From Shigella phage SGF2, in the sequence record MN148435: a DNA stretch of 64,000 nucleotides. The stretch is one strand, 5' to 3'. Below the pieces are notes generated by a model, which worked only from the letters and a program-made list of their open reading frames with translations, ran no database searches and had not been told where the DNA came from. Numbering within the stretch: position 1 is the first letter of the stretch; every line of letters starts with the position of its first letter. The translations under genes and the position numbers were made by a program. Of the stretch, positions 7,614-59,995 are shown one piece after another.

Positions 7614-7850
7614 ATGAACATTAGGCATCAATTCAATAAAGAGCACGCCGCCGCTTTGGCGGCTCTCAATCTTAACGGCAGTCTTGACGCAGCATTAGAG
7701 GCATTGAAAGAAAGACTCATGACAGAGATAGTTCAAACTGAACCTCATGAGAATAAGAAACGCGAAGATTGTTATCAAAAGTATAAAATGGTGGGTAGCT
7801 TAAAAGAGGTCATAAAAGCTGCTATCAATAGTGCAGGAGATGTTTCATAA
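7614..7850 (+). CDS. hypothetical protein
   Basis: 78-aa ORF; stop overlaps next start (TAATG). Confidence 0.4.
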   Translation: MNIRHQFNKEHAAALAALNLNGSLDAALEALKERLMTEIVQTEPHENKKREDCYQKYKMVGSLKEVIKAAINSAGDVS

Positions 7851-8935
7851 TGCCACAAGATAATTATATTGACCCGAACGATTTTAAATCTTTCCTCCAA
7901 CTGGATGACCTGAAAGGTTCTTTTAAAGAAGAGCTTGGTCGATTAGAATCTGAACAAGAACCAGAAGTGGACATTGACGATGAGTTCCCGGAAGATACCG
8001 GTGACAACTTCGACTTTGATACCGACCTTCTCGGTGAAAGCGATGAGCTTAAGTTCGAAGATGAAGATGGTTGGGAAGATCATGATGAGGAAGGCGAAGT
8101 CGAAGAAGATGGGGATGACTCTGATGAAGGTGATGAAAACACTGAAGCAGAAGAGGAAGACTCAAGCGATGCAGGATATGAAGATGATTCTGCTGACGGT
8201 GATGGTGAAGTCTTTGATGTAGACTACGAAACCGTTATCACCCTTCCTGATGGACGTGAGATGACTATTGAAGAACTCTCCAATGGCTATCTTACTGGTG
8301 CTGACATGACTGAACGAGAATCAACTCTTCAGCGTCACATGGAAGCATTTGAGGAACGTGTAGTAGGTTTGAAGGATGTATTAGAATTAGCGTCTTTAGA
8401 AGCAGACCGAGTAATTGAAGATTACAATGGTTTTGATTGGGACAAGCTTGCAGTAGAAGATCCTCAAGCATATGTTGAAAACAAACGTTTCCTAGAGAAG
8501 TACACAGCTCGTCGTAACCAGCTTGAACAGGCTCAGATGCGTGTTAAGCAGGAAGCAGCAGCTAAAGAGCAGGAAGCTTTCCAAGCCAAGAGTGTTGAGT
8601 GCGTTAATATTCTGAAACGTGAGATTCCAAATTGGGATGAAAACTTATATCAAAACTTAATGCAATATGCAATTGACTTAGGTGCTACTGAAGAAGAAGT
8701 ATTGAAGGAAAACCGTCCGTCTATTTTCCTAGCTCTCCACAAAGCATACCAATTTGATAAAGGTAAGCAGCAGGTGATGGCTAAGATTAAACGTCCCGGT
8801 GCTCCACGCAAGGTTGTGAAGTCTGATGCTGCAAAGTCTCGTACTTCCAATAAGCCAGACAACGCTAAGGTTGCCAAGGCATTCGCAGAGGGTCGCGTTA
8901 GTCACGAAGACGCATTCAAATTCCTCGTAGATTAA
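7850..8935 (+). CDS. scaffolding protein
   Basis: 361 aa between portal and capsid; highly acidic D/E-rich N-terminal half, helical C-terminal half. Confidence 0.5.
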   Translation: MPQDNYIDPNDFKSFLQLDDLKGSFKEELGRLESEQEPEVDIDDEFPEDTGDNFDFDTDLLGESDELKFEDEDGWEDHDEEGEVEEDGDDSDEGDENTEAEEEDSSDAGYEDDSADGDGEVFDVDYETVITLPDGREMTIEELSNGYLTGADMTERESTLQRHMEAFEERVVGLKDVLELASLEADRVIEDYNGFDWDKLAVEDPQAYVENKRFLEKYTARRNQLEQAQMRVKQEAAAKEQEAFQAKSVECVNILKREIPNWDENLYQNLMQYAIDLGATEEEVLKENRPSIFLALHKAYQFDKGKQQVMAKIKRPGAPRKVVKSDAAKSRTSNKPDNAKVAKAFAEGRVSHEDAFKFLVD

Positions 8936-56781: not shown

Positions 56782-58812
56782 TTAACCTCTATTCAATGAA
56801 CATTTAGGAGAATTACAATAAACTTGATTCATAGAACCAAGCGTACAACTTTCAGCATCGCGCCACGGAATCTGCTTAAAACACTCTGAGCAGTAGCCGA
56901 GGGTTGACCACATGGCTTTGGTGAAGTCAGTGCTTCGGTTTCCGTCGAAGCTGACAACAGTTTTGCGGAGAGCTGTTCGTGATTCAGGAAACACACCTGC
57001 TTTCTCAGCAGGTTCCTCCTTTTTTGGCTTAGTTGAGATTGCAAAAATACTGTTGCTACGTTTCTCAACATAAGCATCAACAACATCCTCCAGAGTGATG
57101 CCTGTCTGTTTCGCTGAGGAAGGTAATACAGTCATACGACCAATCATATCTTCAGTTACACGTAAAGCAAATTCAGGACGACGGGCGTTTGTTGTATCTG
57201 TTGCTTTAATCCAGACATAACCATCTTTGATCGTAGCATTAGATACTTTCTTCTTTACATCTACAGCGCAGACTTTACAGATATCTTCACCACGAAGACG
57301 ACTAAGTTCATCATCGAACTCGTTCTCTGTTTTAACTTCACCGCAGATTTCACAAACACCAATAGGAGTTTCCTCCTCTTCTTCATCTTTAGGTTTAGTC
57401 AAACCTTCCAGACATTCAGGGTGCCAGTAGCACTGATATGCGAAGACTGCTTTAGGTGCATCCTTCCAATCAATGTGTTTGTCACAACCACCGCAATCAC
57501 CATGAGAGTGTGCTTCCCAGAATTTACGAGTGATAGTAACGCCATTCTTATTGACGAAACTATCATTCATGTCAAAAGGGATATCATCATCGAAGTCAGC
57601 GGTAGTAGACTCAGGCTCCTTTTTCTCCAGAGATGGGTCAACAAAACGACCTGCTGTGATCACTAAACGAACCATAGCATTAACTTCGGAGATGCAGGAT
57701 ACTGTCCCACGGTAAACAATTTTAGGGTCTTTCAGGGCATCCTGATAAGCCTTAATGTCTACGTTATGAACATCACCTTCGATATACTCTTGAGACTTCT
57801 CATCGTAGATATAACCAATCATCTTACCACGAGAAGGAACAGCACCAGCTGTTGCATAAGGAACAAACTCATGTGGTGTGATTTCCACAGTCATATCGCG
57901 GCGAATGTCAATGTTTCGATCGCTTGCGATTTTGTTTTGACTTACCACTGCGTTTCTTCGACGAACGTCTGCCGCTGTCACTCCCGGCTTCGTGTCGTAA
58001 GGATTGCTTGTACTGCTTTTTGAGGAACTTTGATAATTGCTTTGGCTGTAGTTGTTCGAGTAGTAATTGCCCCAACGATTGATTACCGTAAAAACCGGAA
58101 GCTCGTGGGCGACCTCTTCAACTAGAGTCATACTGTTGTTTGACATGTCAAAGATATACTCTGTACCAACTTTACATTCAAAGTGCTCATCAATACGGTT
58201 CTTGTGAGACTTAGAACGCTTCAGAATCCACATCAACATGTCTTCTTCAGAAGCACCAAACCAATCTCTGTTACAACGTGCGAGATGGAATGGACGCTCT
58301 TCGTTACGGATGATATGAAGACGGTTGTCAGAAGCATCATGCCAGATTAAGGTGAAAGCACCATCCAGCTTTTGAATAGTCTCTGCTGCACCAATAGTGT
58401 TAATAGAGTGGCAGATGTTCTCACTGTCTACCTCGAAGTTTTTGCTGTCAGGTAACAGATCTTGGTCCATCAAGGTTCCGTTATGAACCAGAGTGATGTT
58501 ACCATGTTGGAAAGGATGGGCGTTCTTGGCGTTAACTGCACCTTTCGTTGCATGACGGCTATGACCAACAATCCATGAAGGTGCTACAGTGTAAGCTGTT
58601 TCACCAGTGGTGTGCTTCTTGTACTCATCTTGAAGGATGAATGCGAAAGAAGGAAGGGCTTCTTTATAGGTGAAGACTTCCTTAGTGCTCTTACGCTGAC
58701 CAAAGATACCAGAGGAATGTTGTCCTCGGAACACTCCAGCATAAAAGAGTTGGTTGAATACGTCTAAATCAGTGCTTGACAGATTACCGCCAGCTAATAC
58801 GATGCCACAAAT
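56782..58812 (-). CDS. class-II (Ntn) glutamine amidotransferase domain protein with C-terminal Cys-rich zinc-ribbon region
   Basis: reading frame between stops begins K-I-CGIVLAGG...RGQHSSGIF...GHSRHATKGAVNAKNAHPF...HNG; track start is internal GTG 58734; only ATT 58812..58810 (AGGTGG 8 nt upstream) can place Cys at position 2. Confidence 0.55.
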   Translation of the reverse strand: MCGIVLAGGNLSSTDLDVFNQLFYAGVFRGQHSSGIFGQRKSTKEVFTYKEALPSFAFILQDEYKKHTTGETAYTVAPSWIVGHSRHATKGAVNAKNAHPFQHGNITLVHNGTLMDQDLLPDSKNFEVDSENICHSINTIGAAETIQKLDGAFTLIWHDASDNRLHIIRNEERPFHLARCNRDWFGASEEDMLMWILKRSKSHKNRIDEHFECKVGTEYIFDMSNNSMTLVEEVAHELPVFTVINRWGNYYSNNYSQSNYQSSSKSSTSNPYDTKPGVTAADVRRRNAVVSQNKIASDRNIDIRRDMTVEITPHEFVPYATAGAVPSRGKMIGYIYDEKSQEYIEGDVHNVDIKAYQDALKDPKIVYRGTVSCISEVNAMVRLVITAGRFVDPSLEKKEPESTTADFDDDIPFDMNDSFVNKNGVTITRKFWEAHSHGDCGGCDKHIDWKDAPKAVFAYQCYWHPECLEGLTKPKDEEEEETPIGVCEICGEVKTENEFDDELSRLRGEDICKVCAVDVKKKVSNATIKDGYVWIKATDTTNARRPEFALRVTEDMIGRMTVLPSSAKQTGITLEDVVDAYVEKRSNSIFAISTKPKKEEPAEKAGVFPESRTALRKTVVSFDGNRSTDFTKAMWSTLGYCSECFKQIPWRDAESCTLGSMNQVYCNSPKCSLNRG

Positions 58813-58891
58813 TTTCTAATCCACCTGAAGGGTAAACCCTTTCATCTAATTAACCTTTAAATTGTGCCCCTTTATCAGAGGCACCCATTGA

Positions 58892-59995
58892 TTACAGCGC
58901 TTGCTCTAACTGATTTTCCAGATGATCTGGAATGTACCCTGTGATATTGCTATCACTGTGACCTGACTCACGCAGTAAGTCAAAAATAGCACGGATACGT
59001 TGCTCTGGTGCAGATCGTACAGTAGATAGATCAGTTGTACGAAGCATAACCAGAATCTCTTGGTACAAGTTGTTAGCGTTCCCTCGGACATATCCAAGGA
59101 ATCCGTAGAAGTCTGAGATATGACGTAGATCAACAAGAACTTCTCCGTTGGAGTTGGTTCGACGTAAACGAATACGACCAGACTGTTCTACTTCATGAGA
59201 ACGACAATACAAAACATCACGGGCCATACAATAACCTGAATGCAAATCCGATTCATCCAGATTGTAATCCAGAGGAAGGTAAGGAAGCATTGGGGCAAAT
59301 CGTACAGTATTTAAATGCTCAATAAACTGATCATTGCTCATCTCTGCGTTATCTAAAGCCAGCTTCTTCAACATCAAGAAGCGGTTAACCAGATTGAGAA
59401 GTTGACCACGTTTCCACTTAGGCTCACTGATACGGAACTCGATCGAACCGTATTGGGCAAGTGGCAGAAGATTCAGGGATGTATACTTATCCCATGAACG
59501 AACCAGACGGTTGAAGAATTCTTCATCGTCGTAGTTAAATGCGTCAGAGGCATTCATTACCTGTGCTTGTACCACTGCGAAAGCAGGGCAGAAGTTGCTA
59601 CGGTAACGATGATAGCCTGAACACTTGAACAACATCTTTTCATAGAAGGTCCAAGCGAGAATGGTTTTCTTGAGGATATTACTATCAGCATCCCTCATAT
59701 CCATATGAACGTGAGTAGAGCAACGCCAAGTCCCCTCGGCGTGCGATTCAGCTACTGCTTCACTCAGGTTGTTGATAGCGTCTAACAACTCCTGTCCGTT
59801 GTAAGGTCGTGAACATACCATTTCACAGCCATTACGCAGGGAACCATCCTCTGTACAATCCCACATATCTGCTTCGATATGGTCGGAGCCTTCGAGTTCT
59901 AGTTCGATACCGACACCGCACTGAAGTGCAATTGAACTATGCGCCTCAGTTAAACGACCTTCTCGATATCCAAAAGTTTGCGCTACAGTTGTCAT
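58892..59995 (-). CDS. amidoligase (GCS2/glutamine synthetase-like carboxylate-amine ligase) candidate
   Basis: GVGIELELEG near N-terminus and CSTHVHMDM resemble GxExE and HxH motifs of GCS2-type ligases; 367 aa. Confidence 0.45.
   Translation of the reverse strand: MTTVAQTFGYREGRLTEAHSSIALQCGVGIELELEGSDHIEADMWDCTEDGSLRNGCEMVCSRPYNGQELLDAINNLSEAVAESHAEGTWRCSTHVHMDMRDADSNILKKTILAWTFYEKMLFKCSGYHRYRSNFCPAFAVVQAQVMNASDAFNYDDEEFFNRLVRSWDKYTSLNLLPLAQYGSIEFRISEPKWKRGQLLNLVNRFLMLKKLALDNAEMSNDQFIEHLNTVRFAPMLPYLPLDYNLDESDLHSGYCMARDVLYCRSHEVEQSGRIRLRRTNSNGEVLVDLRHISDFYGFLGYVRGNANNLYQEILVMLRTTDLSTVRSAPEQRIRAIFDLLRESGHSDSNITGYIPDHLENQLEQAL

Follow-up and report, generated by a model that had tools for sequence, protein, structure and literature searches.

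We examined the start of a gene in Shigella phage SGF2 (sequence record MN148435), using the 64,000-nucleotide stretch of this record that is here called the window. The window comes from a phiEco32-like coliphage (Kuravirus) and is 99.8% identical to SR02 over the query and approximately 97.7% identical to phiEco32. The gene, which like its leader lies on the minus strand, encodes a glutamine amidotransferase (GATase) homologous to phiEco32 gp83. A previous sequence-only reading had pointed to a mechanically called open reading frame (ORF) at 56782..58734, starting at GTG, and had noted that the frame continues upstream through a probable catalytic cysteine codon to an in-frame TAG. We confirmed the GTG start of this ORF and found all of the sequence statements of that reading to be correct, including the positions of the small upstream ORF, TAG, AAA, ATT, TGT and AGGTGG. 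As we read it, the full coding sequence occupies 56782..58812 and consists of 676 codons, counted from ATT, and a stop. The putative initiation codon, ATT (58810..58812; AUU in the mRNA), is followed by TGT (58807..58809), which would encode the catalytic nucleophile Cys1 after removal of the initiator Met, and then by GGC ATC GTA. The GTG at 58732..58734, taken as the start by the ORF finder and in the SR02 record, is read here as Val27.

Upstream of ATT lies a nine-codon leader ORF (58816..58845) in the GATase frame, which begins with ATG (58845..58843) and ends with TAG (58818..58816) 3 nt before ATT. Its codons are ATG AAA GGG TTT ACC CTT CAG GTG GAT TAG (MKGFTLQVD*). AAA (58815..58813) is the sole codon separating the leader TAG from ATT, so that, as had been pointed out, no ATG, GTG or TTG stands between this TAG and the Cys codon and a canonical start there is impossible. 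A second in-frame TAG (58848..58846) directly precedes the leader ORF, and a weak Shine-Dalgarno (SD) sequence, AAGG (58857..58854), is located 8 nt before its ATG. The SD-like sequence of the GATase gene itself, AGGTGG (58821..58826), lies within the leader ORF, 8 nt 5' of ATT. A small hairpin (AAGGG-UUUA-CCCUU, 58828..58841) ends 16 nt before the start and 1 nt from this SD. All of these elements of the leader ORF, together with ATT and the first two codons, fall within a 55-nt block (58805..58859) that is invariant among related phages.

The protein read from ATT matched Pfam GATase_6 (1e-14, 55 bits against a cut-off of 27) and GATase_7 (27.4 bits against a cut-off of 25). The N-terminal-nucleophile (Ntn) domain covers approximately residues 1-240 and precedes a C-terminal part of about 430 residues, which is rich in Cys and for which no Pfam match was found. 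Three PHROG profiles aligned to the Cys-first protein, each from its position 2, as in the match to phrog_4736 (3e-202). An alignment of 16 phage GATase homologs (31-84% identity) had the invariant columns C2-G3, R29-G30, GH-R-AT, HNG and VDS, and the profile built from it matched the glutaminase domain of E. coli GlmS (1xff) from residue 1, the Cys, with an E value of 3e-12; PurF was matched too, and the GATase Cys also aligned with the M-C of 4amv. The GH-R-AT, HNG and VDS columns aligned with R73, N98-G99 and D123 of GlmS, and all catalytic residues were kept. These matches identify the protein as a class-II (N-terminal-nucleophile) glutamine amidotransferase of the phiEco32 gp83 type. They also establish the position and register of TGT as the predicted Cys1 codon, bearing out the assignment that had been made from the N-terminal motif.

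Comparison with homologs indicated where translation of this enzyme begins. More distant homologs (31-65% identity) had ATG-TGY-GG at the aligned position in all cases inspected, with an SD 7-10 nt upstream. These were Proteus P59, GAP52, A24, ECO319P1, Vibrio SJSY21, SE131, LAh_9, PJNS034, Bjorn, LUZ24 and two IMG/VR phages of 64-65% identity. As these homologs have ATG at the aligned codon, ATT occupies the exact place of its relatives' ATG. Furthermore, the phiEco32 record of 2008 (EU330206) annotates its coding sequence phi32_83 (gp83, ABY52884.1) from the same ATT and with the same extent, and this is the sole ATT start among the 128 phiEco32 coding sequences.

Most GenBank records have chosen a start further downstream, either at GTG 58734 or at an internal ATG, which would imply a GATase-like protein that lacks Cys1 and is non-catalytic. 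However, the starts chosen are different and non-homologous: GTG in SR02, where the gene is called 'purF', and various ATGs in SU7/ECBP2, KBNP1711, EP335, Paul and BUCT695. The codon at GTG 58732..58734 is GTA, GTT or GTC in phiEco32, Paul, SU7, ECBP2, KBNP1711 and EP335. Additionally, the 26 codons from TGT to GTG had 10-13 synonymous and only 3-5 non-synonymous changes in five diverged GenBank relatives (8 and 5, respectively, in one metagenome contig), and they encode the invariant CGIV...RG motif. The synonymous excess and the lack of conservation of GTG indicate that the stretch is translated, under protein-level selection, and that GTG encodes Val27. With all of the catalytic residues retained as well, we regard a downstream start as very improbable.

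The arrangement of SD, TAG, ATT and Cys codon is widespread. A 38-nt probe covering it (58830..58793) was found in 95 Escherichia and Shigella phage records, with 100% identity in 67 and one mismatch in 28; in every sequence of a diverged genus that was read directly, the mismatch was a synonymous GGC>GGT change. The arrangement was also present in 7 metagenome contigs and in IMG/VR genomes. Overall, the leader was carried by 97 GenBank records and 7 metagenome contigs. ATT was unchanged in all of the phiEco32-like sequences read, in the Aeromonas phage BUCT695 and in L118, a phage contig within a Herbiconiux assembly. The sequence-only reading had listed a sequencing error among its alternatives. 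Either this or an assembly error, or a recent pseudogenizing ATG>ATT mutation, would have nothing in its favor but the fact that ATT starts are rare a priori, and would have to have arisen in about 100 independent genomes, including 95 independently sequenced coliphage records, the metagenome contigs and IMG/VR genomes, diverged genera, BUCT695 and L118. The probability of such an explanation is close to nil. Taken together, these comparisons suggest that AUU (58812..58810) is almost certainly the initiation codon, as had been proposed.

The 55-nt block was the longest invariant run in a 3-kb alignment of eight sequences from three genera (Kuravirus, Suseptimavirus and Nieuwekanaalvirus), where the runner-up measured 21 nt and the flanks were approximately 72-79% identical. 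When the window was compared with KBNP1711 (genome mean identity 79%), the block ranked about 14th-16th among exact runs genome-wide; it lies outside coding sequence and its flank identity (0.72) was the lowest among the top 30 runs.

Outside the phiEco32-like phages, two further variants of this leader were found. BUCT695 (Grimontviridae) has a leader that is 90% identical, whereas its GATase N-terminal domain is just 54% identical. This leader (TAG ATG AAA GGG TTA ACC CTT CAG GCG GAT TAG AAA ATT TGT) contains the ORF MKGLTLQAD and the SD AGGCGG, and keeps the hairpin with the loop UUAA. In Crifsvirus, whose GATases are the nearest relatives of that of BUCT695 (approximately 65% identity), the leader is short and of the ATG type, AATGTAAATAGATGAAAGGATTTTTGT-ATG. 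The third variant, L118 (CTG GAA AGG GAT TTA TCC CTT GGA GAG GAT TAG TAA ATT TGC), has the SD GGAGAGGA, and its hairpin gains one A-U pair (AAGGGA-UUUA-UCCCUU). In L118 an ORF of at least 73 codons with an HTH_3 domain runs through the leader and ends with TAG TAA directly before ATT. An ORF thus stops 0-1 codon before ATT in all three variants. A search of IMG/VR and metagenomes for further variants returned just phiEco32-like copies and one chance match.

An Xre-type HTH_3 ORF was located directly 5' of the ATT-type leader in both of these variants, intact in L118 (1..222) and frameshifted and degenerate in BUCT695 (L026 2305..2510). This proximity suggests that the 3' end of an inserted gene gave rise to the leader or spread along with it. 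An HNH-like N-terminal motif that had been suspected in the upstream pseudogene of BUCT695 was rejected, as Pfam supported HTH_3 only.

The L118 variant also bears on TAG read-through followed by autoproteolysis, another alternative that had been raised. B. subtilis PurF is made with an 11-residue propeptide. By analogy, read-through of the leader TAG, whose ORF is in frame with the GATase, would produce a precursor (MKGFTLQVD-X-KI-CGIV...) from which a 12-residue propeptide is removed autocatalytically. The tandem stops TAG TAA of L118 exclude this. Moreover, TAG is an ordinary terminator in this phage and ends 14 of the 128 phiEco32 genes; no tRNA was found in the window, and the sole tRNA of phiEco32 is a tRNA-Arg, leaving no suppressor tRNA. 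No homolog has a propeptide, as all begin with M-C, and two amino acids of the leader peptide are replaced in BUCT695 (F>L and V>A). We therefore give this alternative hardly any credence. Membership in the propeptide type of amidotransferase represented by B. subtilis PurF was likewise rejected, since the in-frame TAG interrupts the upstream ORF. A -1 frameshift on A_AAU_UUG was also considered, and reading of the frames showed that the slip would miss the GATase frame.

In order to place the ATT start within its gene family, we combined two IMG/VR surveys with additional GenBank sequences and deduplicated them at 90% nucleotide identity, which left 139 loci. The codon before the invariant Cys was ATG in 95 loci, ATT in 29, ATC in 9, GTG in 3, TTG in 2 and, in one odd case, TGC. 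ATT or ATC therefore precedes Cys in 38 of 139 non-redundant homologous loci (27%). These ATT/ATC leaders had GGAG or GGAGGA 7-9 nt upstream, and an in-frame canonical start before the upstream stop was absent in 35 of 44 ATT/ATC rows (from the two surveys, which overlapped before deduplication). In a neighbor-joining tree of the first survey, ATT/ATC was found in at least 8 clades having ATG sisters.

A hairpin, defined as at least 5 bp with at least two G:C pairs and an end 11-24 nt upstream of the start (in most cases adjoining the SD), was present in 24 of the 38 ATT/ATC leaders and in only 5 of the 95 ATG leaders (Fisher p = 3.5e-12, uncorrected for phylogeny); shuffled ATT/ATC leaders contained one in 9.6% of cases. 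The stems all differed in sequence (e.g., GAACCU/AGGUUC, GAGGUC/GACCUC, GUAGCC/GGCUAC and AAGGG/CCCUU), the loops were often GUU, and G.U pairs occurred in several stems when these were read as mRNA. When GC content was equal, the ATT/ATC leaders were more structured than the others (z of -1.0 versus 0.03; p = 0.002). The phiEco32 hairpin (58841..58828) is one instance of this family-wide, ATT/ATC-linked hairpin. The sequence-only reading lacked both this recurrence across the whole gene family and the fact that the ATT start was already publicly annotated.

It is possible, and we propose it only tentatively, that hairpin, SD and AUU/AUC form a dedicated and previously undescribed translational control module, in which the stem-loop makes non-canonical initiation workable and perhaps regulated. 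The stem-loop could stack on the SD/anti-SD helix or bind a factor. If this were true, synthesis of the enzyme would be linked to the condition of the host's translation initiation apparatus during infection (initiation factor 3, IF3, and guanosine tetraphosphate, ppGpp), and the invariant 55-nt phiEco32 leader, with its leader ORF, would be the module's most elaborate version.

For the phiEco32-type gene, we suggest the following order of events. AUU 58812..58810 would be read by the initiator tRNA (formylmethionyl-tRNA), after which deformylase and then methionine aminopeptidase would expose Cys1. The SD AGGUGG, 8 nt upstream, would serve the weak start codon, with a possible contribution of the small hairpin that abuts it. 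De novo initiation is probably supplemented by re-initiation, carried out by ribosomes that have terminated on the UAG of the leader ORF, 3 nt 5' of AUU. Such an arrangement would likely serve to hold the enzyme at a low level that is sensitive to initiation factors, or to regulate that level. We consider it highly probable that this combination, of an AUU start decoded by initiator tRNA, an exposed Cys1, an SD with an adjoining hairpin, re-initiation from the leader as an addition and a low, factor-sensitive level, is correct as a whole.

Several observations weigh against this combined reading. Proteomics of phage SU10 detected the protein and yielded no N-terminal peptide. Folding of single leaders was no better than that of shuffled sequences (z from -0.2 to -1.5), and the invariance of the 55-nt block leaves covariation uninformative within phiEco32-like phages. 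Because the statistics ignore phylogeny, the association between hairpin and start codon across the family is a strong lead that stops short of proof. It is plausible that initiation is coupled to the leader ORF, but this ORF lacks its ATG in L118 and lacks an SD in BUCT695, and in most of the distant ATT/ATC leaders no ORF ends beside the start; coupling is thus not general. Finally, the total invariance of the 55-nt block exceeds the obvious need of SD, hairpin and start, and an added constraint is likely, which might be a site bound by a protein, a signal in the DNA or a tract of gene conversion. As to secondary structure, a minimum free energy outer helix (GGUUAAU/AUUAGCU and GAUG/CAUC) and an alternative hairpin sequestering the SD were discarded, as neither was preserved in BUCT695 and their z-scores were not significant. 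A scan of the leader against Rfam 15 returned only two sub-threshold matches at chance level (16.7 bits with a gathering threshold of 44, and 14.2 bits with one of 70).

The points concerning the leader ORF also bear on a stricter form of coupling, in which the GATase is expressed wholly by termination-reinitiation after the nine-codon leader ORF and de novo binding of the 30S subunit at AUU is negligible. The geometry of stop and AUU kept in all three leader variants, an SD that falls within the leader ORF, the AAGG that precedes the leader ATG by 8 nt and the approximately 2-fold gain that upstream translation confers at the E. coli infC junction are what such a mechanism would lead us to expect. 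However, it would depend on a leader ORF that has no SD in BUCT695 and no ATG in L118, and most of the distant ATT/ATC homologs have a strong SD and no adjoining upstream stop, so AUU/AUC is apparently used de novo elsewhere in the family. Termination-reinitiation, one of the alternatives listed in the sequence-only reading, is therefore a plausible added contribution, whereas we judge it unlikely to be the sole route.

The invariance of the block raises another explanation, compatible with an AUU start, in which the 55 nt are kept mainly for a DNA-level or other non-translational reason and ATT is merely tolerated. The block could then serve as a promoter or operator, as the target of a homing endonuclease or a co-conversion tract, or as a site of RNA processing. 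Conservation beyond what SD and start codon need is consistent with this, and the same leader in a different phage family, beside a degenerate HTH_3 ORF, hints at horizontal spread; hairpins are also palindromic at the DNA level. However, a scan of the leader for sigma-70 promoters and terminators found nothing on the gene's strand. The consensus of the phi32 gp36 promoter, tAATGTAtA (PMC8948821), was absent from the leader, and no further copies of the leader motif were found in the window. In addition, the hairpins include G.U pairs when read as mRNA, and their presence follows the type of start codon in many lineages, which points to translation. A mainly non-translational reason for the conservation therefore appears rather unlikely, if somewhat less so than exclusive reinitiation.

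Some other features of leaders in this family were observed. The motif TTTAAATGTAA(A/T), approximately 20-40 nt before the GATase start, recurs in L009, L021-L023, L026 and L150-L152, which are contigs of Grimontviridae and their relatives. It bears a loose resemblance to the phiEco32 gp36 promoter element, and the phiEco32-type leader has TTTAAAGGTTAAT in that place. The string GGAGGAT(T)AG, directly before the start, is common to the distant ATT-type leaders L200, L195, L203, L204 and L051/L059/L065. In L200, for example, the sequence is GGAGGATTAGAAA ATT TGTGG, which nearly equals the GGTGGATTAGAAA ATT TGTGG of phiEco32. The proteins are only distantly related, and the likeness could stem from a shared ancestral leader or from convergence.

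The GATase gene is accompanied by genes for Amidoligase_2, a 'phage phiEco32-like COOH.NH2 ligase' and an ATP-grasp enzyme, a neighborhood that is presumably the peptide-ligase cluster of phages reportedly described by Iyer et al. in 2009. The amidoligase gene (58892..59995, minus strand) lies 5' of the GATase leader. Directly after its stop codon is a stem-loop (58864..58884, minus strand) that has undergone compensatory changes between genera (GUGCC..GGCAC versus GCGC..GCGC), with variable loops and no clear U-tract. The record of phage WFI101126 annotates a 'terminator' feature in this region; the stem-loop may be a terminator or a processing or stability hairpin. Between the GATase and ATP-grasp genes, a small ORF (56546..56779, minus strand) matched Pfam DUF7195 (4.7e-17); inside it, 56674..56719 is a 46-nt exact match to KBNP1711, although the flanks are 75% identical. 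The longest exact match of the comparison with that genome was a 178-nt run at window positions 7743..7920, with flanks of 82% identity. Only about 40% of this run falls within ORFs of at least 90 aa, and the run may represent a further conserved element outside coding sequence.

The ATT start of this single gene is already public in GenBank and is thus not new. What appears to be new is the 55-nt leader that is invariant in three genera and also occurs in another phage family, in an Aeromonas phage, the infC-like geometry of stop, 3-nt gap and AUU in this leader, with a third variant in which a long upstream ORF ends with TAG TAA, and the recurrent hairpin-SD-AUU/AUC module; as far as we searched, we found none of these described in the literature. 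Of 56 annotated records sampled, just 8 include ATT and the catalytic Cys; the others truncate the gene, and gene callers do not consider ATT. Most public phiEco32-like genomes show an enzyme without its catalytic cysteine, and this GATase family will go on being truncated as long as gene callers disregard ATT and ATC. AUU and AUC starts are extremely rare, with two known cases in E. coli. A family with approximately 27% AUU/AUC starts and a co-varying hairpin on the SD side is thus a natural experiment on how bacteria-type ribosomes use non-canonical starts, and one may ask what a phage gains from such a start in an Ntn enzyme.

Among the closest known systems is phiEco32 gp83, an ortholog with an identical leader and the same annotated ATT, from which the gene described here does not differ at the sequence level. 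The class-II Ntn amidotransferases GlmS, PurF and AsnB have their fold family and catalytic residues in common with the phage protein, and their Cys1 directly follows the initiator Met. Unlike the phage gene, the cellular genes sampled start with ATG (11 of 11 distant bacterial or archaeal matches aligned from residue 1), and only the phage protein carries the approximately 430-residue C-terminal part without a Pfam match. The E. coli gene pcnB, for poly(A) polymerase, offers another parallel: its AUU codon, according to work by Binns and Masters in 2002 (cited in PMC3592434), reportedly limits expression. In both cases a non-canonical AUU stands on an enzyme gene, where in pcnB it keeps the enzyme level low, but pcnB is chromosomal and is not known to have a conserved leader ORF or hairpin module.

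Coupling of genes V and VII of phage M13 resembles the putative coupling at the GATase leader, in that a downstream start is reached by ribosomes terminating a few nucleotides away, in a manner that is sensitive to IF3 in M13 (PMC2268962). Gene VII, however, has AUG and no SD, whereas the phage GATase has a good SD and a non-canonical codon. The nearest parallel in geometry is the E. coli thrS-infC junction, UAA GGU AUU, in which the gap from stop to AUU is also 3 nt (PMC3592434). There, AUU gives about one quarter of the AUG level, i.e., approximately 4-fold lower expression, re-initiation and de novo initiation are about equal, and upstream translation brings a gain of approximately 2-fold (PMC3592434). 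Re-initiation is sensitive to IF3 (PMC2268962), and mRNAs with AUU are poor competitors under nutrient limitation and ppGpp (PMC5499595). The phage gene resembles infC in its AUU start, in the stop exactly 3 nt before it (UAG AAA AUU) and in an SD within the upstream ORF. As the GATase is not an initiation factor, autoregulation by IF3 of the infC type would not apply. The phage gene further differs from infC in that its upstream ORF is a nine-codon leader rather than a full gene, that a hairpin abuts its SD, and that the AUU/AUC start recurs across a phage gene family.

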